From Deltaproteobacteria bacterium (GTDB taxonomy: Bacteria; Myxococcota; XYA12-FULL-58-9): a DNA stretch of 64,000 bases. The DNA lies in NCBI GenBank assembly GCA_016218825.1, contig JACRCV010000075.1, positions 166,358 through 230,357 of the forward strand. The letters are read 5' to 3'. The position numbers and the translations under genes were made by a program. Position 1 is the stretch's first letter. The number at the start of each line of letters is the position of its first letter. Shown here in pieces: positions 1,315 to 33,690 of the stretch. Under the pieces are notes generated by a model. The model saw nothing but the letters and a program-made list of their open reading frames with translations. It searched no databases and was not told where the DNA came from.

Positions 1315-4296
1315 ATGGTCGAAGAGTTGATGGCACTGGGCGCGGCCGCGGTGCGCCGCCTGGGCGTCGTCGCCTCCCTGTGTGGCGCTGCCTGTCTCGA
1401 GCCCGGCGGCCCTGCTCCCGACAAGGGCGCGGTGGCGTGCGTCCGCGACGGCGACTGCGCCGGTGACGAGCGCTGCGCCGGCGGGTACTGCGAGAAGCTC
1501 TCCGGCACCGACGCCGACGTCACCCGACCCCGGCGACCGGCGATCGTGCTGCTCACCGAGTCGGTGCGCTTCGTCGACGTCGGCCCGGGCCGGCGGCAGA
1601 CGCGGACGGTGCGGCTGACGAATCACGGCGACGACAACCTCCTGGTGCACCGAATCGACGTCGCCGGCGATTCGGGGCGGGTGCGCGTCGACCCGGCGCC
1701 GGACGGCTTCGTCTTGGTGGTGCCGCCGCAGGTCGAGTACGCGCTGACCGTCACCTTCGTCGGCTCGGACGGGGTGGCGTTCGTGGGCTCGCTGAACATC
1801 GACAGCAACGACCAGGCGCTGAGCCGGGCGTCCCTGCCGGTCGCGGTGCAGTACACCGGCCGGCCGTTCTTGATCCTCACCGGAGACGAGGCCGGCCAAC
1901 ACGCGGAGAACCTGGCCGACAAGGCCGTCGACCTCGGGCCGCAGCCGACCGGGCTCGCACCGCCGCACCGCTTCTTCCTGAAGAACCTCGGCATCGGCGG
2001 CGCCTTCGCGGTGTTGGAGCCGCCGAGGTTGGTGGGCGACGCCGGCTTCAGCGTCACGATCCGACCGGCGCCGGATCTGGACGGACGTTATCGCCTCGGC
2101 CGGTTCGCGGCATTCTGCGACACCATCGCCGACTGCGAGGGGGCGGCGGACGCGTGTCGCGGCCGCGTTTGCGTCCAGGCCGACCTGCCGGTGGACGAGC
2201 TGGTGCTGGAGGTCGTCGCCGATCCGGGGCTCGGCCAGAGCGGCGCCACCAGCCTGCAGGTGCGCTACGGCACCCCGAACGGCGCGGTCAGCGACGAGGT
2301 GCGCGTGAGCCTTACGGCGCGGGGCGTCGCGGCCGACCTCTTCCTGGATCCGGTCCAGGTCGACTTCGGGGACGTGAGCGTCGGTTTTCCACAGTCGCGC
2401 CTGGTCGAGATCCACAACCTGAAGAGCGCCGCCTTGAGCGTCACCGCGCTCGATCTGCTCGGGCCTGCGGCCTCCGGTGCCACGCCGCTCTTGCGGGCCG
2501 AGGTGCCGCAGGGCGCGCCGCCGTTCGTGCTCGAGCCCATGGCGACCGCGATCGTCCGTCTCGACTTCGTCGCCGCGGCCGCGAACCTCGGTGACACCAC
2601 GGCGACTCTGGCGATCGAGACCGATGCCGCGGCGCTGCCCTACGTGGTGGCGATCACCGGGCGTTCACGGATCGGTCCGGACCTGGTGACGGTGCCGCTC
2701 CTCGAGCTCGACGCCGGCGTGACCCATGTGCGCCGCGCCGCCACGGCGATGCTCCGCGTCGGCAACGCCGCCGAGCCGACCGCTGATCCGCTGCGGTTGA
2801 CCGCGGTCCACGCGGCCTCGACCCACGGCCAGGGCGAGATCAGGGTGAGCCCGGTCGCCGTCGATCTGGCCGTTTATCCTGGGGATTTTGTCGAGGTCGC
2901 GGTGGAGTGTACGCCCGCGGTGATCGGAGTGCTCGAAGGCATCGTGACCCTGGAGAGCGACGCGCCCGACAACCCGGCGCGGCGCCTCGAGGTCCGCTGC
3001 GAGGGGATCGATCCCACCCTGACCCTGGGTTACGAGAGCCTGGACAGGGCGGGGGTGGGCACCTTCCAGCTCGGCGACGACCACCCCTGTCGCGACGATG
3101 CCGCCAGCTATCCGAGTCCGTGTCTCGACGTCGGCCGGCTGTACGTGAGCGGCGCCCGGCGCGCCCCGCTGACGCTCGGCAACGTCGGTGTCGGTCCACT
3201 CACCGTGCGCGCGGTCGCGGTCTCGCCGGCGGACGCCGGCTTCGCCGTGGACGGCGCGTTCCCGCTGACGCTCGCTCCCGGCTCAGGCGCCGAGGTCGCG
3301 GTGACGTTCACCGGCGGCTCGGCCACCGAGACGCGAGGCGCGGTGTTGGCGTTCGACCACGACGACGACGACACCGCGGCCACCATCCACCTGGTCGCGT
3401 CCACCGCCGACTGCGGCGGCACGCTGCGGGGCTGCCCAGCGATCGCCGAGTGTGTGACGACCGCCACCCACGACGCCTGTTGTCGGGCCTACGACGACCC
3501 GCGCGCCTGTGGTCCGAGCTGTGCCCCGTGCCCGGCGAAGAGCCACACCCGCCGCGCCTGCGTCGGCGACGCTTGTGCTTACGAATGTCTCTCCGGTTGG
3601 CACGACCTCAACGGCAACGGGGACGGTACCGGCGGCAGCATCGACGACGGCTGCGAGTACGCCTGCGTCGCGACCAACGCCGGCGTCGAGGTCTGTGACG
3701 GCCTCGACAACGACTGCGACGGCCTTGCCGACAACGGCCTGGTGCTCTTCGACTCGCTGGGCGCGGAGGCGCCGCAGGTGTGCACCCCCGGGACCAGCGC
3801 CGGCTTCCTCGGTTGGTATCAGGAAGCCGACTTCGGCAGCGTCACGGCGGTCGGCGGCAGCGCCATGGAGCTCACGGTCTTTCCCGGCCGGCTCTATCGC
3901 TCCGACCCGCTCGGTCCGGCGGGCGACGTCGACTGGCTGCGGGCGGTGTTCGCGGAGGTCGACGCCTGCGCGACCATCGGTTTCCGCATGGACATGGAGC
4001 TGGCGGCGCCGCCGGGGACTCGGCTGCAAATGTGCGGTCGCCTGCACGGCGCCGACGTCGCGCCGCTGTTCACGCTGCCGTGCGACGAGATCGGCGGCGA
4101 GCCGGTGCTCGACGTCTGCGCGGTCGCCGACGGGGTCACGGCGGCGTCCCTGCGTTTCGAGTGGCCGGAGAGCTGCGGCGTCGCCGACGATCGGGTCCTC
4201 GATCTTCGGGTGCAGGCGGCACCCGGCGCCACCGGAGGGGCCGCGGCGTCGTGCGCGCCGTACGTCCTGACGTTGTCCGGCGCCCGTCTCTATTGA
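1315..4296 (+). CDS. large secreted protein with repeated Ig-like/'choice-of-anchor D'-type beta-sandwich domains and a C-terminal Cys-rich MopE-like metal-binding motif
   Basis: ORF track, 993 aa. Signal-like N-terminus, then repeated ~100-aa modules (e.g. VDVGPGRRQTRTVRLTNHGDDNLLVHRIDVAGDSG). C-terminus ...CVGDACAYEC...CDGLDNDCDGLADNG matches the myxobacterial MopE/'putative metal-binding' motif. Confidence 0.8.
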   Translation: MVEELMALGAAAVRRLGVVASLCGAACLEPGGPAPDKGAVACVRDGDCAGDERCAGGYCEKLSGTDADVTRPRRPAIVLLTESVRFVDVGPGRRQTRTVRLTNHGDDNLLVHRIDVAGDSGRVRVDPAPDGFVLVVPPQVEYALTVTFVGSDGVAFVGSLNIDSNDQALSRASLPVAVQYTGRPFLILTGDEAGQHAENLADKAVDLGPQPTGLAPPHRFFLKNLGIGGAFAVLEPPRLVGDAGFSVTIRPAPDLDGRYRLGRFAAFCDTIADCEGAADACRGRVCVQADLPVDELVLEVVADPGLGQSGATSLQVRYGTPNGAVSDEVRVSLTARGVAADLFLDPVQVDFGDVSVGFPQSRLVEIHNLKSAALSVTALDLLGPAASGATPLLRAEVPQGAPPFVLEPMATAIVRLDFVAAAANLGDTTATLAIETDAAALPYVVAITGRSRIGPDLVTVPLLELDAGVTHVRRAATAMLRVGNAAEPTADPLRLTAVHAASTHGQGEIRVSPVAVDLAVYPGDFVEVAVECTPAVIGVLEGIVTLESDAPDNPARRLEVRCEGIDPTLTLGYESLDRAGVGTFQLGDDHPCRDDAASYPSPCLDVGRLYVSGARRAPLTLGNVGVGPLTVRAVAVSPADAGFAVDGAFPLTLAPGSGAEVAVTFTGGSATETRGAVLAFDHDDDDTAATIHLVASTADCGGTLRGCPAIAECVTTATHDACCRAYDDPRACGPSCAPCPAKSHTRRACVGDACAYECLSGWHDLNGNGDGTGGSIDDGCEYACVATNAGVEVCDGLDNDCDGLADNGLVLFDSLGAEAPQVCTPGTSAGFLGWYQEADFGSVTAVGGSAMELTVFPGRLYRSDPLGPAGDVDWLRAVFAEVDACATIGFRMDMELAAPPGTRLQMCGRLHGADVAPLFTLPCDEIGGEPVLDVCAVADGVTAASLRFEWPESCGVADDRVLDLRVQAAPGATGGAAASCAPYVLTLSGARLY

Positions 4297-4505
4297 AGCT
4301 CGTGCGGTGCGGGCGCCACCCCGAGGTGGGTCTTGGCGCGGGCGAGCTGCGAGGCGATGGCGCTGTCGAGGGTGTCCGCGAGGGCGCCGTCCGGATCGGC
4401 GGCCGTCGACAGGGCCTTTGGCGCGGCGGTCGCGAGCATCAAGAGACCGCTGGTGGCGAGCATTGCCATCGAGGTGGCGATCACGGCTAGCAAAGTGCGC
4501 TTCAT
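4290..4505 (-). CDS. small secreted protein (71 aa)
   Basis: Internal start MKRTLLAVIATSMAMLATSGLLMLATAAPKA... within ORF 4290..4652. GGGAGA Shine-Dalgarno sits 6 nt upstream. Convergent with the 3' end of the big gene. Confidence 0.45.
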   Translation of the reverse strand: MKRTLLAVIATSMAMLATSGLLMLATAAPKALSTAADPDGALADTLDSAIASQLARAKTHLGVAPAPHELQ

Positions 4506-4636
4506 GCGTGGTCTCCCGGCGTCCGCCTGTGGTAGTGGATTGCCTCGCTGGCTGTGATCGTACGAGGGGCCCCGGAGGCGGTCAAAAAACCGGCGCCCGG
4601 TCGACCGCCCGCCGTCGGGGTGGCGAAAGTGAGGCC

Positions 4637-6436
4637 ATGGAGCGAGCAGCACCGGAAGAGCGGTTTGGGCGCTACACGTTGGTCCGCCGGCTGGCGTTCG
4701 GGGGCATGGCCGAGATCTTCTTGGCCAAGCTGCGGCTCGAAGCGGGCTTCGAGAAGGACGTGGTGCTCAAGCGCATCCTGCCGCAGTTTGGCGCCGATCC
4801 GGCGTTCGTCGCGATGTTCGTCGACGAAGCCAGGCTGGCGGCGCGGCTCTCGCACCCCAACATCGTCCAGGTCTCCGACTTCGGCGCCGAGGACGGCGTC
4901 TACTTCCTGGCGATGGAGTATGTCGACGGCCTCGATCTACGGGAGATCCTCAAGGATCGCCACGATCGCCAGCAGCGCTTGTCGCCGGCGGTGGCCGCGG
5001 CGATCGGTGAAGGCGTGGCGCGCGGTCTCGCCTATGCCCACGATCTCGGGGACGCCGACGGCCGGCCGCTCGGCATCGTCCACCGGGACGTGAGCCCGCA
5101 CAACATCATGGTCAGCCGGACCGGCGACGCGAAGATCATGGACTTTGGCATCGCCAAGGCGGCGGGGCGCGCGACCCGCACCGCCACCGGCCTGATCAAG
5201 GGCAAGGTCGCCTACATGGCGCCCGAGCAAGCCGCGGGCCGCGACATCGACCACCGCGCCGACCAGTTCGCGCTCGGCCTCGTGATCTGGGAGTGTCTGA
5301 GCGGCCAGCGCATGTTTCAGGGCGGCTCCGATCTCGAGGTGCTGCGGGCGGTCGTCGAGTGCCGGGTTCGTCCGGTGACCGAGCTCTGCCCAGAGGTCCC
5401 GGACGCGCTGGCGCAGATCCTGTCGCGCACCCTGGCGCCGACCCCGGAGCAACGCTACCCGCACCTCGCCGATCTGGCTCGCGAGCTCGCGACGTTTCGC
5501 TTCGCTCTCGGTGCCGGCGGCGCCGTCCACCTCGGGGACCTCGTCACCGGCGGCGCGCCCCGCGCTGAGGTCAGGCGCAAACGGGCAACGCTGCCGCTCG
5601 GCGCCGCCGCCTCGGCTCCGGCGGCCGAAGCCCCCGAAGTTCCCACCTTGGCCACCCGCGCCAGCGACGCGGCCGAGACCACGGTGGTGACCCCGGAGCC
5701 ACGGATCGCTTCGCGGTCGCCGCCACGTCCGACGCTGCAGCGGTCCGGGGCACGGATGCGCTGGGGGCTCGCGTTCTTGTCAGTGGCGTCGTCGGTGGCC
5801 GTCGGTGGCCTCGCGAGTCGGGTTCGCGACCGCCGCCACGCCCTGGAACGACCCGCCGGCGAGGTCAGGCCGATCCCCGAGGTCGCCGCCGGCTCGGTCC
5901 GGGTGACGAGCATTCCCGCCGGCGCCATGCTGTTCTTGGACGGTCTCGCCACCGGCCTCACGACCCCGGTCACCTTGCCGCGCCTACCGCTCGGCGGGCG
6001 CTGGCCGGTGCGCCTCGATCTCTTTGGCCACCTATCGTGGCACGGCGAGGTCACCGTGACGCCCGGGGACAGCCTGGTGGCCGCGACGCTTTCACCGCTC
6101 GGCCCGCCGGCAGCGCCGCCGCCAGATACGGCGCCCACCGCCGCGCCGGCGAAGCCGAGCGCCGCCGGACGTCACGAGGGCGGCGGTCGTCCCGGTGACC
6201 GCGAGCCCGGCAAGCGGCGGGGCGTGGGCGAGGCCCGCCTCTGGCTGCGTTCGACCGGCGCCTGGTTCGACGTGTTCCTCGACGACACCAAGCTCGGCAC
6301 GACCCCGCTATCGGGGGTCGCGGTTCCGGCCGGACATCTCGAGCTCCGTCTGGTGAACGCCGAGGCGGGCCTGGAGCGCCGCCTGGTCCTCGATCTGGCG
6401 CGCGGCGAAGAGGCCCGCCGCACCTACACTCCCTGA
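4637..6436 (+). CDS. Ser/Thr protein kinase with C-terminal PEGA domains
   Basis: Hanks kinase motifs are present: GGMAEIFLA, VLKRI, HRDVSPHNIM, DFGIAK, APE. Two C-terminal PEGA-like beta modules (VRVTSIPAGAMLFLDG..., FDVFLDDTKLGTTP...). Start ATG 4637 (MERAAPEERFGRYTL). Confidence 0.9.
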   Translation: MERAAPEERFGRYTLVRRLAFGGMAEIFLAKLRLEAGFEKDVVLKRILPQFGADPAFVAMFVDEARLAARLSHPNIVQVSDFGAEDGVYFLAMEYVDGLDLREILKDRHDRQQRLSPAVAAAIGEGVARGLAYAHDLGDADGRPLGIVHRDVSPHNIMVSRTGDAKIMDFGIAKAAGRATRTATGLIKGKVAYMAPEQAAGRDIDHRADQFALGLVIWECLSGQRMFQGGSDLEVLRAVVECRVRPVTELCPEVPDALAQILSRTLAPTPEQRYPHLADLARELATFRFALGAGGAVHLGDLVTGGAPRAEVRRKRATLPLGAAASAPAAEAPEVPTLATRASDAAETTVVTPEPRIASRSPPRPTLQRSGARMRWGLAFLSVASSVAVGGLASRVRDRRHALERPAGEVRPIPEVAAGSVRVTSIPAGAMLFLDGLATGLTTPVTLPRLPLGGRWPVRLDLFGHLSWHGEVTVTPGDSLVAATLSPLGPPAAPPPDTAPTAAPAKPSAAGRHEGGGRPGDREPGKRRGVGEARLWLRSTGAWFDVFLDDTKLGTTPLSGVAVPAGHLELRLVNAEAGLERRLVLDLARGEEARRTYTP

Positions 6437-6504
6437 GCACATCGATCGCGACCGGTGTCGATGCGGATCCCTGAGGCCTCGGCCCGTCCGCGGCGTTGAG
6501 GGAG

Positions 6505-6625
6505 GCATAAATACATCGAAGAGATATTCTCAGGGGAGCTCGAGAAAAGAATCACATGGATGGAGGATTGTGAGGCGAATATTTCTAGGAGAAGATTGTT
6601 AGACGAATATTGTGAGAAGAATAGC
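6505..6625. promoter_or_regulatory. AT-rich island (~35% GC) with three ATATT-core repeats (GATATT at 6524-6530, AATATT at 6578-6583 and 6606-6611) and GAGAAGA purine repeats
   Basis: Seen directly in the sequence. AATATT should occur less than once per 64 kb at this GC content, yet there are two copies plus a GATATT variant within 90 bp. Confidence 0.4.
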
Positions 6626-6661
6626 AGCGCCCGATGGGCGCGGCAGTCCGGGTTGTGGACA

Positions 6662-7471
6662 ATGACGGCGGTGCTGTGGCAGGGATGGGGCGTGGAGACG
6701 GCCGAGATCGTCGATGGGTGGCTGGCGGCGCTGTTCGAGCGTCACCGCGCCAGTCTGACTTTTCAAGAAGTCCGGCGTGGGGTCCAGGCGCTGTCGCGCT
6801 CCTACGTCGAGCTGCGCGACCGGCGCCGGGCGCCCAAGGCGCTGGACGGCGCCGGCAAGCGGGCCGCGTTCGCCTGTTTCTTTACGCCGCTCCATTTTCT
6901 CCTCGTTCGTGAGCTCCTGGTGCAGCTGGCTCCGGCAGCGGTCGAGCGGGTCGTCGATCTCGGCTGTGGTTGTATGGGCGCGGGGCTGGCCTGGGCGACG
7001 GCGTCGACTACTGCGCAGACCGAGGTCCACGGTGTCGATCGCAATCGCTGGGCGCTGGACGAGGCGGCGCGCAACCTGTCGTGGTTTGGCCGCCGCGGTC
7101 GCGCGGTGCTCGGGGACCTCTGCTCCTTTCCGTCGCCGGCGGGGGCCACCGGCGTGGTCGTGGCGTTTGCCGCGAATGAGCTCGACGACGACGGTCGACA
7201 GCGCCTGCTGCAGCGGCTGCTCAGCGGGGTGGCCGCGGGCGCGTCGGTTCTGGTCGTCGAGCCCATCGCCCGCAGCTTGACCGCGCGGTGGTGGCCGGGC
7301 TGGGAGGCCGCGTTCGTGGGTGCCGGCGGACGGACCGATCTCTGGCGCTTGCCGGTCGAGCTGCCGCCGCGGCTTCGCGAGCTGGACCGGGCCGCCGGCC
7401 TGGATCACCGCGAGCTCACCGCCAGGACCCTGTACGTCGCGCGCCGCTCGGCCGACGCCGCGGTTCGTTGA
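6662..7471 (+). CDS. class I SAM-dependent methyltransferase-like protein
   Basis: ORF track 6560..7471. Motif VVDLGCGCMGAGLAW resembles SAM-binding motif I. I prefer the in-frame ATG 6662 because 6560-6661 is AT-rich, unlike any other coding DNA here. The 6560 start remains possible. Confidence 0.6.
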   Translation: MTAVLWQGWGVETAEIVDGWLAALFERHRASLTFQEVRRGVQALSRSYVELRDRRRAPKALDGAGKRAAFACFFTPLHFLLVRELLVQLAPAAVERVVDLGCGCMGAGLAWATASTTAQTEVHGVDRNRWALDEAARNLSWFGRRGRAVLGDLCSFPSPAGATGVVVAFAANELDDDGRQRLLQRLLSGVAAGASVLVVEPIARSLTARWWPGWEAAFVGAGGRTDLWRLPVELPPRLRELDRAAGLDHRELTARTLYVARRSADAAVR

Positions 7472-7511
7472 GTCCTTGCCGCGGGGTGGGGGAATGTAGG
7501 ATGAGACGGGC

Positions 7512-8069
7512 ATGATCGACGAGGCGGCCATCGCGGCGCTCTACGAGCGCTACGGCCACGCGCTGTATCGGCGCTGCCTGTCGTTGGTCGCAAACCCCGA
7601 CGACGCCCGCGAGCTCCTGCAGGAGATATTCTTGCAGTTCTGGCGGGGTAGAGACCGCTTCGAGGGTCGCAGCTCGGTGTTCACATATTTGTATCGGATC
7701 GCGACCAACAAGGCGATTGACATGTTGCGGCGAAGGACCACCGCAGGTGCGGTCGTGGACGAAAAGCATGCAGATGAGCGTTCTGGCGGCGGTTTTGGCG
7801 CCGAGCGGCGGGCCGCGGCGCTCCGGGAGCTGGCCGAGCTGACCGTTGGTCTGGACGAAGAGACGCTGACGATCGCGGTGCTCGCGTACGTGGACGGGAT
7901 GACACAGGACGAGGTGGCAGCGGCAATGGATCTGTCGCGGCGAACCGTGGGCAAGAAACTGAAGCGGTTCCTGGAGCACACCCGCGGGCGGGTGGGCGAC
8001 GGCCTGAGACAAGGCTTGGTGGCGCAACCGGTAGAAGGAACGGGCACGGATGGCGACACAGTCCCATAG
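7512..8069 (+). CDS. ECF (sigma-24 type) RNA polymerase sigma factor
   Basis: Region 2 (LQEIFLQFWR...FTYLYRIATNKAID) and region 4 (DGMTQDEVAAAMDLSRRTVGKKLKR) are recognisable. Confidence 0.9.
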   Translation: MIDEAAIAALYERYGHALYRRCLSLVANPDDARELLQEIFLQFWRGRDRFEGRSSVFTYLYRIATNKAIDMLRRRTTAGAVVDEKHADERSGGGFGAERRAAALRELAELTVGLDEETLTIAVLAYVDGMTQDEVAAAMDLSRRTVGKKLKRFLEHTRGRVGDGLRQGLVAQPVEGTGTDGDTVP

Positions 8070-9309
8070 CCGCAGGGCGCCGGACATCCTGCTGGAGCGC
8101 TATCTGGCGGGCGACCTCCCGGCGGCGATGGCCGAAGAGGTGGCGAAGCTGATCGCCCTTAGCGACGCCACCCGCGCGCGGCTCCGGGAGCTCGAGAGCG
8201 AACGCGCTGCCTTCCTCGCCGCCAACCCGGCGGCGCCGTTTGCGCATCAGCTCGCGACCCGACTCGCGGTCGACGGTGGCGCCGGTCCGCGTCGCCGGCC
8301 CTGGTGGGCCTGGGCTCTGGCGCCGGCGTTGACTGCGGCCGCGACCGCGGTGGTGGTCCTGGCGGTGGTTCGCCAGGTGCCCGACGTTGCACGCCCGCTG
8401 GCGAGCGTCCCGGCGCAGGATCTGGCGCTGCTCGCGCCCGAGGAGAGCGCGACTCCCGCGCCCGCGACCTCTTCCCGTTTCGCGACGCCCCCGCCCCCGA
8501 CCGCCGCGCCCGAGGCCGAGGCCGTGCGGCAGGCGGCCGCGGAGCCGGCGGGCGGCGCCAAGCCGCAACCGAAGAAGGACGCTCCGGTGCCCGGCCGGGC
8601 GCGATCGAAGGCCAGGGCGGCGCCCGACCCCGGCAAGGGCGGCGCGGCTGGCGGTGGAGGCCTAGGCGGGCTCGGCGACCGGGACGAGCGCAAGAAGGCG
8701 AAGGAGGAAGGGCAAAAGACCTCGGCCCCCGCGGCGTCGAAGCGGGACGACGCGATGGCCGCGCCGGCCGTCCCGATTCAGGTCGCCGACCAGCCGGCGG
8801 TGGCGACGCCGCCCCCGCCCCCGGCGCCGGTTGCGGAGTCGAGGCCGACGCGGGCTCCGGTGGCGATCGAACGGGAGATCGCGGCGCCAGCAAGCTCCCC
8901 CGGGGCCGCGGCGTCGGTCGGAGCTGCCGCCGCCGACGTGTCCGCCCCGCCCGCGGACGACAGCGGCGCAGGGATCACCGCGGTCGAGGCCGCGAAAGGG
9001 CGCAAAGCGTCCGCGCCGGTGCGGCCCGAGGTGCTGGCCGCCGTGAGGCGCCACGCTGCCGCGCTCGCCCTGTGCTTGCGGCCGGCGTTTGCCGCCGGCG
9101 AGCTGGGCTCCGGGAAGTACACCCTGTTGCTGGACTTCGTGATCCAGCCGAGCGGTGCGGTGATCAAGGGCCGGCTGCGGGGCCCGGAGGCCCTCGTCGC
9201 CAGCAGCGCGCGCCTCTGCGTCGTCACCGCGATGCGGAGCTGGCGACTCCCCCCTCCGGACGGCGACGAGGTCGTCACCGCGCTGCCGGTGACCGTTGCG
9301 ATTCCGTGA
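8050..9309 (+). CDS. anti-sigma factor (single TM, Pro/Ala-rich periplasmic linker, AgmX/PglI-like C-terminal domain)
   Basis: Overlaps the sigma gene by 20 nt. N-terminus LERYLAGDLPAAMAEEV resembles an anti-sigma motif. TM segment WWAWALAPALTAAATAVVVLAVV. The C-terminal ~80 aa resemble myxobacterial AgmX/PglI C-terminal (TonB-C-like) domains. Confidence 0.65.
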   Translation: MATQSHSRRAPDILLERYLAGDLPAAMAEEVAKLIALSDATRARLRELESERAAFLAANPAAPFAHQLATRLAVDGGAGPRRRPWWAWALAPALTAAATAVVVLAVVRQVPDVARPLASVPAQDLALLAPEESATPAPATSSRFATPPPPTAAPEAEAVRQAAAEPAGGAKPQPKKDAPVPGRARSKARAAPDPGKGGAAGGGGLGGLGDRDERKKAKEEGQKTSAPAASKRDDAMAAPAVPIQVADQPAVATPPPPPAPVAESRPTRAPVAIEREIAAPASSPGAAASVGAAAADVSAPPADDSGAGITAVEAAKGRKASAPVRPEVLAAVRRHAAALALCLRPAFAAGELGSGKYTLLLDFVIQPSGAVIKGRLRGPEALVASSARLCVVTAMRSWRLPPPDGDEVVTALPVTVAIP

Positions 9310-9340
9310 GCGTCGGTAGACTGTCACACATCGTCTCAGC

Positions 9341-9395
9341 ATATTCTATTGACAATATTATTGACTGCCGATCGGAGACGTTGTAGGTCGGAGGC
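9341..9395 (+). promoter_or_regulatory. putative promoter/operator: tandem -35-like hexamers TTGACA (9349-9354) and TTGACT (9361-9366) around an AATATT core, then a 17-bp spacer, TAGGTC, GGAGG and ATG
   Basis: Seen directly. It is an AT-rich island upstream of the MerR-like gene and shares an ATATTCT motif with the 6524 island. Confidence 0.4.
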
Positions 9396-9902
9396 ATGAC
9401 CCTTCTCTCGCAGGTAGAGCTTCGCCGCGTCGAGCGCCAGCACCCACAAGGCGTGAGCTCGGCGGTGATCGTGGACGCCTTCAAGAGTCGGCGGCAGCGG
9501 TTCAGTGAAGCGACGCTGCGCAAGTACGTGCAGCTCGGGTTGTTGCCGACCTCGCGCCGGGTCGGGAGTCGCGGCCGCAACCGCGGCTCGCGCGGTTTGT
9601 ATCCGGTGGTCGTGGTGCGGCTGGTCAATGAGATCAAGCGGGCCCTCGATCGGGGCGGCACCCTCGAGGAGATCCGGCGCGGCAGCGTTGGGTTGTCGGG
9701 GGAGCTGGTCGCGGTCGAGCGCGCCTGGGCACAGCTGTGGCGGCGTTTCGAAGACGCGGTGGCGCACGTGCCGGCAGGCAAGCAGCAGCGGGCGGTCCGG
9801 AAGCGACTGTCGCAGTCGCGGCGAATCATCGAGCGCGAGGTGCGGGCGCTTGACAGAGTGGCGGTCCGCCTGGGACAGCTCACCGACAGGAGGATGACAT
9901 GA
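9396..9902 (+). CDS. MerR-family-like HTH transcriptional regulator
   Basis: [55 protein letters not shown] matches the MerR HTH/wing pattern (TxRYYExxGLLP...GxRxY...EI). Confidence 0.55.
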
Positions 9903-10399
9903 CGGCGAAGACGACGTGGGAGGATCCGGTCGGTGATGCGGCGGTGGCCCGGCGTGGGCGGCCGGAGCGACGCCCGAAGACGATGTCGCGCCGCGAGATG
10001 ATGCGGGAAGCGCGGCGCCATGAGCGCGCCGGCGACACCGTCGAGATCATGGACTACGAGCGGCCGCGCAACCGTTCGGAGTGCGTCAACGGGCCGCGCC
10101 CTTGCCTGTTCGTGTCGTGCAAGCACCACCTCTACCTCGACGTCAACCCCGAGACCGGGTCGGTGAAGCTGAACTTCCCCGAGAAGGAGGTCTGGGAGCT
10201 CGAGGACACCTGCGCCCTCGACATCGCCGAGCGCGGCGGCATCACGCTCGAAGAGGTCGGCGAGATCCTGAACCTCACCCGTGAGCGTATCCGCCAGCTC
10301 GAGGTCGACGCGCTGAAGAAGCTCAAAGACGAGGCGCCGAAGCACGAGCTCGACGCCTTCGTGGGCTGGGATCCGCACCGGGGTGATCCGGAGCCCTGA
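9899..10399 (+). CDS. sigma-70 region 4.2-only DNA-binding protein with N-terminal Cys/His cluster
   Basis: ATGA overlap with the upstream gene. [30 protein letters not shown] is near-identical to the sigma70 region 4.2 HTH consensus. Preceded by [16 protein letters not shown]. Confidence 0.7.
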
Positions 10400-10478: not shown

Positions 10479-12755
10479 ATGGAGCTGGTCTGTCCCAGTT
10501 GCAAGACGACGTTCTCCGTGGCGGACGCCTCGGTGCCCGGCGGCGGTCGGGATTTCCCCTGTCCGAGCTGCGCCCAACCGGTGCCCGCGGGTTGGGGGGT
10601 GCTGGAGATCGACCTGGGTGTGGACCCGAAGGCGGCTCCGGTGCCGCCATCACCGACCCCGGTCGAGACGCCAATCACGACGGCGAAGTCGCCGACCGTC
10701 AGGCCGACGCCGGCAGCAGCGGTGTCAGCCGAGGCCGCCAAGGCGGCCCATCCGGCTTTGAGCGTGGCGCAGCCGGCGCCGGTGGAGGCGGGCCGGGTGC
10801 GCGTGACCGGGGTGACGGCGGCGGTCGACGAGGAGAGCCCCTGGCGGATCTATGCGGTCGTCGGCGGCACCGCGCTCTTCGCCATCCTGGTGGTGGTGAT
10901 CGTCTCGCTCTTCGAGCGGCGTCCGCCGCCGCCCCCGAAGATGCCGAACCCGTTGCAGCAGCGCGTCTCGAGTTGGCGCGGCCAAGGACTGAAGCCGGCC
11001 GTGGCGCCGTTGGCGGCGGCGGTGAAGACCGCAGAGGACGAGCTCGGCCGCGGCACCGACCGGGGGGTCAAGGAGGCGTTCAACGCGGTTCGCGCGGCGC
11101 TTCTCCTCGATCCGGACGCGCCGGCGGCGATTGCCACCTACGGCATGGTGCTCGCCGATTGGCCGGATCGGCTCGAGCCCGACGTCGTTGACGAGGCGCT
11201 GGCGGCGATCGCCTCGGCGATTGGCGACGCGCCCAGCGGGCGCTACCGCGCGGAGCTCGAGGCGGCGCGGGGCTGGCTGCTCTTGCGCACCGAGAGATTC
11301 GAGGCGGCGCGCCAGGCGGCGACGAAGGCGGCGGCCGCCCGGCCCGCGGACCCGGGGATCAAGATGCTGCAGGCCGTCAGTCGTATCTCGACGCGCCCCG
11401 AGGAGGCGGCGGCCGAGCTCGAGCGTCTGGCGCGGGAGGCACAGGCCCCCCGCCGTCTGGCGCTGTGGCGCGGCGAGGCCGAGCTGCGCTCCGGGCAGAT
11501 CGGACGGGCGCTGGCGATCTGGTCGGGGTCGCTCTCCGGTAGCGCCGCCGACGCCGCGGTGCTGCGGCGGCTGGCGCGGCTCGCGGTAGACGCCGGCGAC
11601 CAGGCCGGCGCGTTCGAACGCCTGCAGCAGATCGAAGCGGCCGGCTATGCCGGGGTCGACGACCGGCTGCTGCTGGCGCGGTTGCAGGCGCGGGCGCTGC
11701 GCAAACCGGCGTTGGCGATCGCGACCTTGGACGCGGCGCTCGCCGACCCGGGCTTGAGCGCCCTGAATCGCGCCCGGGTCTTGAGTGAGAAGGCCGCGGT
11801 GGCGCTCTTGGCGCCGCCGGCGTTCGTGAGCGCGGCGACGGTGTCGGGGTGGCTCGACGCCGCTCTCGACTTGGCGCCCGACTTGCCGGAGCTGTTGTAC
11901 GTCGCCGGTCTCGTCGACGAGAGAAACGGCGCCATCGACAACGCCCTGCAGTCCCTCGAGGCGGCCGCCGAGCTGGCGCCGGATCGACCGGAGGTGGCGC
12001 TGCGGCTCGCGCTCCTCGCCAAGGACGACCCGAGCCTGGCGCGCCCGGCAATCGCGGCGGCCAACCGCGAGGTGGCGCACTACGTCCCGGCGCACCTCGC
12101 GAGCGCCGTGCTGCTGCTCGCGGCCGGCGACAGCTCCGGCGCCGCCGCGGCAGTCCGGCGGGCGGCGGACTTCGATCCGCGACGCTATGCGGATGAGCAC
12201 GAGATGGATGCTTTCGTCGACCCGCCGGCGGCGCACCTCGCCATCGCCAAGCTGCTCTCGCCGTATGCCCGCCGGAGCGACAACGCCATGCTGACCACGG
12301 CGATGGGCATGGCGTACTACTTCGCGCAGGACTTCAAGCGCGCCGAAGCCACCTTGACCGCGGCGCTCAAGTCGGACCCCGAGGACGTCGGCGCTCGGCT
12401 GTACCACGCGATCCTGGCGCTTGGTCGCAAGAAGATCCCGGTGGCGCGCCGCGATCTGCAGGCGGCGGCGGCGGCCGACTCGCAGCACGCGGTCGTCCGG
12501 CTTTATCAGGCGCGCCTCTTCGAGCAGCTGAAGAAGCCGGCGGAGGCGGAGCGGCTCTACCGCGACCTGCTGGAGGTGAACCCCCTCGACACCGGCGCTC
12601 GGCTGGGGCTGTCGGGGGTGCTGTGGGGGCGGGGGCAGAAGGACGCGGCGCGCGCCGAGGTGTTGAAGCTGATGCGCACCCGGCAGGGGGACCGCGACGC
12701 CCTGCGTTTTCTGGTGGCGGCGGACCGTCGACCGATGGCAAAGAAGAGGCCGTGA
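10479..12755 (+). CDS. zinc-ribbon / TPR-repeat membrane-anchored protein
   Basis: N-terminus [12 protein letters not shown]...FPCPSCAQ is an MJ0042-type zinc ribbon. One TM follows, then many TPR-like Ala/Leu repeats. Confidence 0.8.
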
Positions 12756-33589: not shown

Positions 33590-33690
33590 GGACGAGCGAT
33601 CCTGTGGTTTGTAATATCGATATAAAACATAGACATACGCCAGAAATCTGAAAGCTAGTTGTGGTTTCACCGTTCGTATTTCCGGGGATC
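33590..33690. promoter_or_regulatory. AT-rich island (~35% GC) upstream of mnmA with direct repeat TGTGGTTT ×2
   Basis: gtttgtaatatcgatataaaacatagacatacgccagaaatctgaaagctagttgtggtttcac. A TTGACA-17-TACGTG promoter-like element follows at ~33758-33786. Confidence 0.35.

Follow-up and report, generated by a model that had tools for sequence, protein, structure and literature searches.

Head-to-tail arrays of short repeats, which keep a fixed, non-helical period and load many copies of one protein, are known from plasmid Rep iterons, parC and tubC, and the known periods of such iteron- or centromere-like arrays are 7, 11, 12 or 17-22 bp. Here we analyse an array of 14-bp direct repeats that lies in an AT-rich island between a Ser/Thr protein kinase gene and a methyltransferase gene of an uncultured member of the Myxococcota. 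The DNA is a stretch of 64,000 nucleotides from contig JACRCV010000075.1 (assembly GCA_016218825.1, Deltaproteobacteria bacterium), which we call the window; positions refer to it unless a related locus is named.

Three regulators offer the closest described cases. BldC of Streptomyces, a MerR-like winged-helix protein, forms a cooperative head-to-tail filament on AT-rich direct repeats that vary in number (PMC5859096), its Arg-rich wing entering the narrowed AT minor groove with loose sequence recognition (PMC5859096). CarH and CarA occupy three to four tandem 11-bp repeats (nAnnTnnACAn), one MerR-type domain to each, in an operator that overlaps the promoter (PMC8156234). CarD of Myxococcus xanthus binds AT tracts at -63 and -77 of PQRS, which depends on a sigma factor of the extracytoplasmic function (ECF) type; the tracts are 14 bp apart (PMC8156234, PMC4374960).

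The island described here does not code for protein. It holds real repeats, and its position, orientation, AT-richness, strand asymmetry and 14-bp phase are conserved in relatives. We infer from this pattern that a protein would bind it and that a promoter may lie at the array; the proteins named below as possible readers are candidates. In our opinion there is about an even chance that the island is a non-coding, directional cis-regulatory array of some four to six head-to-tail 14-bp protein-binding sites, placed beside or within the methyltransferase promoter. Cis-regulatory DNA is almost unknown in uncultured Myxococcota, and the array is a cleanly delimited element which has kept its period, direction and composition while its sequence drifted. 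It also stands at the junction of Ser/Thr-kinase signalling, an ECF sigma/anti-sigma module and an exopolysaccharide locus.

The AT-rich island and its 14-bp repeats

The G+C (GC) content of the window is 71.0%. Among its 120-bp windows the minimum, 38.3% GC, starts at 6507, and the 60-bp window starting at 6564 (35% GC) is the second-lowest of the 64 kb. The original prediction, made from the sequence alone, was therefore right to place an AT-rich island between the kinase and methyltransferase genes, and most of its description of the words in that island holds as well. AATATT does occur at 6578-6583 and 6606-6611, and with a further copy at 9354-9359 it is found three times in the window against 0.26 +/- 0.46 expected, a count which 0 of 100 dinucleotide shuffles reach; fewer than one per 64 kb had been anticipated. 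ATATTCT (6524, 7626 and 9341) recurs in a second AT island at 9341, as claimed. GATATT is present too, at 6523-6528 and not at 6524-6530, so that its position had been given one base off. The ATATT cores and the GAGAAGA-type purine repeats both exist, not as separate features but as parts of one 14-bp tandem repeat.

The consensus of that repeat is ATTGTGAGnAnAAT, an AT tract plus a G-containing core. Tandem Repeats Finder (TRF) reports a period of 14 with 4.1 copies at 6567-6623 and the consensus ATTGTGAGAAGAAT, or alternatively a period of 28 with 2 copies. Of the 12 rows that TRF lists for the entire window, no other is an AT-rich tandem array. A 28-nt direct repeat (D1) in the core array is 75% identical, and the two 28-bp units of the array share 75-78% identity. 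In the autocorrelation of the window island, lags 14 and 28 reach z=3.9 and z=4.5, respectively. In the refined weight matrix, ATTGTGAGnATAAT, the information is concentrated at A1 T2 T3 G4, A10 and T14. The -35-like words TTGTGA, TTGAGA and TTGTTA stand in phase within the repeats, and GATATT falls in the stretch of degenerate copies upstream of the core array.

Matches to the repeat are rare elsewhere. The consensus with three or fewer mismatches is met four times in the 64 kb (6567, 6595, 6609 and, on the minus strand, 9343) against 0.48 expected, and matches of 8 bits or more to the position weight matrix (PWM) occur only in the array island and at 9343/9348 in the island before a MerR-like gene. 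These last two (9343-9356, minus; 9348-9361, plus) are the only other motif matches in the window, and the second island that holds them, 9320..9395, has no significant 14-bp periodicity. A strict degenerate form of the repeat pattern has no copy in the 55 related loci scanned.

The array ends about 30-40 bp before the methyltransferase start, and the space between them holds a GC hairpin (Table 1); small hairpins are seen, by eye only, at the corresponding place in the related loci L044, L043 and L045. A scan for intrinsic terminators (a GC hairpin plus a U-run) found none for the kinase gene on the + strand and flagged only a minus-strand site, 6641-6627, at this hairpin. As a separate observation, the lowest-GC 60-bp stretch of the window is elsewhere, with 31.7% GC at 33608. 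That region (33600-33670) has two TGTGGTTT words about 57 bp apart and no 14-bp period (its top lags are 7, 13 and 15), and a repeat search of it was empty.

Table 1. Coordinates of the array, of the sequences around it and of the neighbouring genes in the window
Feature	Position	Strand	Sequence or evidence
AT-rich island, non-coding, G>C on + strand, holds the repeat array	6507..6626	+	38% GC; A46 C12 G34 T28
Core array, four head-to-tail 14-bp repeats	6567..6622	+	TRF; PWM scores 9.3-14.6 bits
Array copy 1	6567	+	ATTGTGAGGCGAAT
Array copy 2	6581	+	ATTTCTAGGAGAAG
Array copy 3	6595	+	ATTGTTAGACGAAT
Array copy 4	6609	+	ATTGTGAGAAGAAT
Degenerate upstream repeat copies	6515..6552	+	PWM refinement and scan; weak, TRF-negative
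Degenerate copy	6515	+	ATCGAAGAGATATT, 6.5 bits
Degenerate copy	6539	+	CTCGAGAAAAGAAT, 9.3-9.4 bits
GC hairpin GCGCCC-GAT-GGGCGC between array and methyltransferase start	6627..6641	.	Inverted repeat I6; only stable element of the centroid fold
Class I S-adenosylmethionine (SAM)-dependent methyltransferase, corrected start most likely ATG 6662 (GTG 6671 possible)	6662..7471	+	Pfam Methyltransf_25; homolog alignment; L042, L043 and L044 start contexts
PEGA-domain Ser/Thr protein kinase	4637..6436	+	Pfam Pkinase and PEGA; P0121 100% identical over 599 aa
ECF sigma factor	7512-8069	+	Pfam and NCBIfam matches
Putative anti-sigma factor	8050-9309	+	Pfam and NCBIfam matches; with ECF sigma directly downstream of the methyltransferase
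Second, smaller AT island upstream of the MerR-like gene	9320..9395	+	PWM and consensus matches; conserved promoter-like element
MerR-like protein, 168 aa	9396-9902	+	Modelled winged helix plus long helical hairpin, predicted local distance difference test (pLDDT) 92
Sigma-region-4 protein, 166 aa	9899-10399	+	Cys/His-containing N-terminal part plus sigma region 4.2

Corresponding islands in related loci

Related loci were gathered, with their DNA, through homologs of the methyltransferase and of the kinase, and 55 were fetched. Homologous AT-rich islands follow the orthologous kinase, or the kinase-methyltransferase pair, at five other loci which represent four further lineages. L044 (ENA) has the kinase, a 195-bp gap with an island of 34% GC at about 7920-8015, and then the methyltransferase and ECF genes. 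In L043 (Logan) the 3' end of the kinase is followed by an island of 21-23% GC and then by the methyltransferase. L045 has kinase and methyltransferase only 8 bp apart, and its island (35% GC) comes after the methyltransferase, ahead of the MerR-like gene. L046 and L049 have no methyltransferase; there the island runs from the kinase stop codon, which the first repeat overlaps, into the 3' end of a convergent APP1_cat gene. The genes just downstream of the kinase indeed vary among relatives (methyltransferase, PAP2, APP1_cat or Tyr-deacylase).

Between lineages the islands are no longer alignable (mean column identity 37%), yet the consensus of the alignment is itself a 14-bp repeat. The kinases of the array-bearing lineages are down to about 50% identity. 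In 6/6 islands the top autocorrelation lag, of lags 3-35, is 14 or 28 (z 2.7-4.8, with 2000 shuffles per island as the null). Combining the five lineages gives a Stouffer z of 8.0 for lag 14 and 6.4 for lag 28, and at most 2.5 for any other lag; the islands share ancestry and are not fully independent samples. A lag-14 peak was found neither in ten other low-GC spots of the window nor in the islands before the MerR-like gene or other low-GC spots of the related loci. TRF detects the period only in the window and in L044; run on L045, L046 and L049 it returned no array, and there the period comes from the autocorrelation of sequences of 60-120 bp. The orientation of the array relative to the kinase is the same in all array loci, and all islands have a G/(G+C) of 0.68-0.77 (pooled p=9e-10), an asymmetry that pure AT-richness would not produce.

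The island is absent from the more distant relatives L050 and L051, which have the kinase and the methyltransferase, and from L047. Nor was a strong AT island found in forty still more distant methyltransferase loci from a metagenome scan, all at 51% identity or less and mostly without the kinase upstream. A methyltransferase search of genome contigs gave a single match, a distant Acidobacteriota locus. In a neighbour-joining tree of the kinases the array-bearing loci cluster, with the array-less L050, L051 and L047 outside and with short internal branches; because of this clustering, a single origin of the array followed by retention would fit. The original prediction proposed conservation in relatives as a check on the island, and held that the same gene order without it would speak against the proposal. 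Both situations exist: the island is kept in five other loci and lacking in L050, L051 and L047, and L050, and in part L045, have the gene order without the island at the kinase-methyltransferase junction. It follows that the island is not needed everywhere for expression of the methyltransferase. Where the array lies between the two genes (window and L044), the methyltransferase gene is directly followed by the ECF sigma and anti-sigma genes; where the array is absent, the methyltransferase gene is translationally coupled to the gene upstream of it and is away from the ECF gene.

Possible functions of the array

We favour the reading as a regulatory array. Copies of one DNA-binding protein would probably load side by side onto the 14-bp sites. 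Since the array ends so close to the methyltransferase start, it probably contains or abuts a promoter which parts the methyltransferase-ECF sigma-anti-sigma genes from the kinase operon, and its occupancy would set the transcription that starts at, or passes through, the kinase-methyltransferase junction. There are two kinds of candidate reader. 1. A sequence-specific winged-helix protein on head-to-tail direct repeats, for example the local MerR-like protein or the sigma-region-4 protein. 2. A CarD-like minor-groove (AT-hook) architectural factor. A multi-site operator, which had been suggested only as an alternative to a coding island, survives as the best-supported reading because the island is a phased direct-repeat array conserved in relatives; the binding is predicted from that pattern. 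Tandem direct repeats and phased AT tracts are a known kind of regulatory site, and conservation of the 14-bp phase across diverged uncultured Myxococcota strengthens the case for an operator.

Several points speak against this reading. In L046 and L049 two convergent genes enclose the array with their 3' ends, so that it cannot be a simple upstream operator there; this position argues that the element is tied to the 3' side of the kinase and not to one particular promoter. The 14-bp period fits none of the repeat-binding families checked, except for the tract spacing of CarD. The limited detection by TRF and the shared ancestry of the islands, both described above, have to be counted here as well. 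Tandem repeats can hold their period by slippage without any function. A sigma-70 scan of 6300-6800 (-35/-10 hexamers, 16-18 bp spacing, at least 9/12 matches) gave 0 sites, and weaker TTGTGA-N15-nAnAAT combinations from adjacent repeats were seen by eye only. The word TTG is not enriched in the repeats (z 0.6), and ATTG (2.6) and TGAGA (3.8) are enriched only moderately. Finally, the pair of MerR-like and sigma-region-4 genes occurs in the array-less L051 and in the kinase-less L053, whose AT-rich island has no 14-bp phase, and hence the presence of the pair does not track the array.

Some promoter and motif resemblances may be recorded separately. By eye, no ECF-type GGAAC...CGT promoter lies upstream of the methyltransferase gene. 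A sigma-54 reading of TGGATGGAGGATTGT (6557-6571), also by eye, was rejected, as the near-invariant -12 GC is GT, and resemblances to the DnaA box, Fur box, CodY box and dif were dropped for misfits of spacing or symmetry.

The regulatory reading can be taken further, although we regard the following version as rather improbable. The array would be the operator of an undescribed, lineage-specific system in which the orphan sigma-region-4 protein and its MerR-fold partner polymerise head to tail on -35-like phased repeats (TTGTGA, TTGAGA, TTGACA) and so gate transcription between the Ser/Thr-kinase operon, the ECF module and the downstream exopolysaccharide (TPR-Wzy-glycosyltransferase) cluster. 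The 166-aa protein has little beyond a primary-sigma region 4, its recognition helix, TRERIRQ, is identical to that of RpoD, and for this reason the protein should read TTGACA-like hexamers; however, the idea remains weak because TTG alone is not enriched.

Another explanation does without a dedicated regulator: the region would be a plain AT-rich promoter or UP-element region, and its 14/28-bp repeats would have arisen as by-products of replication slippage and persisted through descent and concerted evolution. We think this unlikely. In its favour, AT-rich islands do precede other genes, and the one at 9320-9395 holds a conserved TTGACT-N17-TAGGTC before the MerR-like gene; the identity of the two 28-bp units suggests a fairly recent duplication; and L050 and L045, which lack the island at the junction, simply couple the methyltransferase to the kinase. 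Against it stand an identical top period in five lineages whose sequences cannot be aligned, the lack of such a period at other AT-rich spots, and the conserved orientation and G>C asymmetry. Moreover, L046 and L049 have no downstream gene to promote, and the empty sigma-70 scan counts against a plain promoter too.

The array may alternatively act in RNA, which in our opinion has a somewhat smaller chance still. Transcribed as a kinase 3' untranslated region or intercistronic leader, it would offer an RNA-binding protein an unstructured A/U/G-rich repeat, or would serve as an entry or processing site of the RNase E type and so make the upstream and downstream cistrons independent in stability. 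The array is always downstream of the kinase gene and co-oriented with it; in L046 and L049 the stop codon of the kinase falls within the first repeat; and the asymmetry (G>C, purine-rich) belongs to one strand. Read-through transcription is plausible, because kinase and methyltransferase are translationally coupled in array-less relatives. On the other hand, Rfam 15 at E<=10 on 6200-7000 gave no meaningful match, the best over the island being TCL6_1 with 11.3 bits against a gathering threshold of 60 (E=9.4), and at the gathering threshold the whole window returned one tRNA only. Folding of both strands revealed no significant stability (z -0.62 and -1.61). We also know of no bacterial RNA-binding protein that reads 14-nt repeats.

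The array as a CarD-type site is a special case of the regulatory reading: an AT-hook/HMGA-like or H1-like protein would occupy the minor groove of phased AT tracts and aid an ECF-sigma holoenzyme. The AT-hook-type regulator named in the original prediction has a myxobacterial precedent in CarD. The centres of AT tracts of at least 4-5 bp are spaced by 13-15.5 bp in L046 and L049, the spacings in L045 include 14 and 13 bp, and those in the window are 27.5 and 13 bp; this is close to 13-15 bp in the first three loci. An ECF sigma/anti-sigma pair follows the methyltransferase gene, and at least 10 other ECF sigmas of M. xanthus depend on CarD (PMC8156234, PMC4374960). Even so, we hold this version to be improbable. 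Reports of CarD and CarG are confined to Myxococcus and close relatives (PMC4374960), and none of the genuine coding frames of the 64 kb specifies an AT-hook or RGRP-repeat protein. CarD acts about 60-80 bp upstream of the transcription start, and the room between array and start codon is about 35 bp in the window and about 105 bp in L044; with an array that ends about 35 bp before the start codon, a promoter 60-80 bp downstream of it seems not to fit into the window locus. A conserved TGTAGGAT box belongs to the ECF gene itself, and reading in the minor groove would leave the conserved G positions and the G>C asymmetry unexplained.

Foreign or mobile DNA, of which the island would be a leftover, or targeting by a xenogeneic silencer is a very improbable explanation: the island is an extreme low-GC outlier in a high-GC genome, with variable gene content just downstream of the kinase among relatives, but there are no mobile-element genes near it, no tRNA or flanking inverted repeats, and no copies elsewhere in the window or the fetched loci, and the period is kept in five lineages together with the position and orientation. 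Because that position and orientation are the same in five lineages whose kinases are about 50% identical, the foreign origin suggested earlier is not supported.

The headline of the original prediction, that the island possibly encodes an atypical, Glu/Cys/Asn-rich N-terminal extension of the methyltransferase starting at ATG 6560, can practically be dismissed: the open reading frame (ORF) exists mechanically (6560-7471), and one + frame is open from 6560 across the island, but the 34-residue leader (MEDCEANISRRRLLDEYCEKNSS...) has no homolog, its codons have a non-coding GC pattern, and relatives have stops in its place. Residues 1-34 have no counterpart in the best 120 homologs, whose coverage of the ORF is about 79-85%. 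When the closest relatives (55-58% identity) are aligned with it, a WQG motif lies within the first few residues of the three closest orthologs, adjoining the start, and L043 has an in-frame TAG 3 codons upstream of the GTG that precedes WQG. GC at the first, second and third codon positions (GC1/GC2/GC3) is 0.38/0.53/0.59 in the leader vs 0.77/0.55/0.85 in the gene body, and no 34-codon window in eight neighbouring genes has a GC3 as low as the 0.59 of the leader. Stops interrupt all three + frames of the homologous islands in L043, L044, L045 and L049, and a period of 14 bp is not a multiple of 3.

The start of the methyltransferase is most likely ATG 6662 or GTG 6671, and the longest-ORF call therefore adds 34 spurious residues, an error that this gene-start correction removes. 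The NCBI gene model for the window methyltransferase (P0001, 259 aa) begins at GTG 6692. We further observe that 6653-6680, GGGTTGTGGACAATGAC, matches the start context of orthologs (GGGTTGTGGATGAGG in L044 and L042; P0002 begins VDNADESWQ), and that GTG 6655 is out of frame with the WQG-containing methyltransferase body. Either the start moved to ATG 6662/GTG 6671 or there is a 1-nt assembly indel at about 6666-6677.

Neighbouring genes and comparison with known systems

The genes around the array are, in order, those for an ASH-domain protein, the PEGA-domain Ser/Thr kinase, the methyltransferase, the ECF sigma, the anti-sigma, the MerR-like protein, the sigma-region-4 protein and a TPR protein. 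Judged by gene order only, this arrangement recurs on Joint Genome Institute (JGI) contig 3300075153 with P0002, where the kinase-methyltransferase gap is 140 bp; the order methyltransferase-ECF-anti-sigma is kept in L044 and on the P0002 contig. No gene in the flanks tracks the presence of the array, and the small secreted-protein gene upstream of the kinase is found in the array-less L051 also.

The longest ORF of the kinase begins at GTG 4307, and since ATG 4637 is the start of P0121 (599 aa) and of the orthologs, the mechanical ORF probably has 110 spurious codons at its beginning (4307-4636). On the minus strand, 4290-4652 encodes a protein of about 70 aa whose N-terminus (MKRTLLAVIATSMAMLATSGLL...) resembles a signal peptide; it lies antisense between the genes for the ASH-domain protein and the kinase. 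Gene calls of 65-82 aa occupy the corresponding place in L044, L045, L046, L049 and L051.

The ECF sigma and anti-sigma genes may form one unit with the methyltransferase gene. Yet a separate, extended -10-like promoter seems to serve the ECF sigma gene, placed within the 3' end of the methyltransferase gene or just behind it, as the box mentioned above (7495-7502) is conserved before its start codon. TGTAGGAT(G) stands 9-15 nt upstream of the ECF start codon in the window, in L044 (about 8962-8969) and in L053 (about 7981-7988), and the equivalent position is occupied by TGGTAGCAT in L046, TGGTAACAT in L049 and TGTTAGTTT in L050.

The promoter-like element of the second island consists of TTGACT (9361-9366), N17 and TAGGTC (9384-9389), and TTGACn-N17-TA(G/A)nnn is kept in L044, L045, L046 and L053. 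As TTGAC(T/C/G)-N17-TA(G/A)nnn it ends 6-9 nt before the MerR-like start codon in five lineages (window 9361-9398, L044 about 10826-10860, L045 about 8705-8742, L046 about 10553-10588, L053 about 9964-10003), and this suggests that the MerR-like mRNA may be leaderless or nearly so. The islands at 699-716 of L043 and 9945-9962 of L053 share AGAGTCGT(A/T)TAAAAATA, followed by the -35-like TTAACA or TTGACG; the island before the methyltransferase (L043) and the one before the MerR-like gene (L053) may thus be related modules.

The 168-aa MerR-like protein has 1764 homologs at E<=0.001. Its top PDB fold matches, with weak E-values, are SoxR, CarH, NmlR and RacA, all of the MerR family, and its Arg/Gly-rich wing, RVGxxGRxRGSxGxYP, is invariant in 39 homologs. 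The sigma-region-4 protein is always paired with this MerR-fold protein, followed by a TPR/zinc-ribbon protein, Wzy_C and glycosyltransferases. In many Myxococcota the two look like a pair of uncharacterised regulators that belongs to a locus of the exopolysaccharide type.

How, then, does the array compare with the systems described at the outset? If a protein does read it, its 14-bp head-to-tail geometry would extend the short list of repeat-polymerising bacterial regulators (BldC, CarH, CarD-type sites) and would provide a handle on the switching of the locus. A literature search for 14-bp direct repeats yielded nothing relevant. Iteron- and centromere-like arrays differ in that no Rep or Par gene is near the array, whose chromosomal context is conserved.

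BldC differs in its unit, which has 9 bp, AATTNNNN(C) (PMC5859096), as opposed to the 14-bp repeat, and in size: it has 68 aa and no helical tail, whereas the local MerR-like protein has 168 aa and a long helical hairpin. As for CarH, the gene of the protein modelled with a MerR fold lies 2.8 kb downstream of the array, and CarH appears among the top fold matches of that protein. The CarH repeat is 11 bp long, however, not 14, the pooled autocorrelation has z=1.7 at lag 11 vs 8.0 at lag 14, and the local protein is without a B12-binding domain. The CarD sites share with the array the 14-bp tract spacing and the ECF sigma/anti-sigma pair at the locus. They have 2 tracts vs 4-6 units, they lie 60-80 bp upstream of the promoter while the array of the window seems too near the start codon for that, and the array differs from them also in its conserved G-containing cores and its strand asymmetry.

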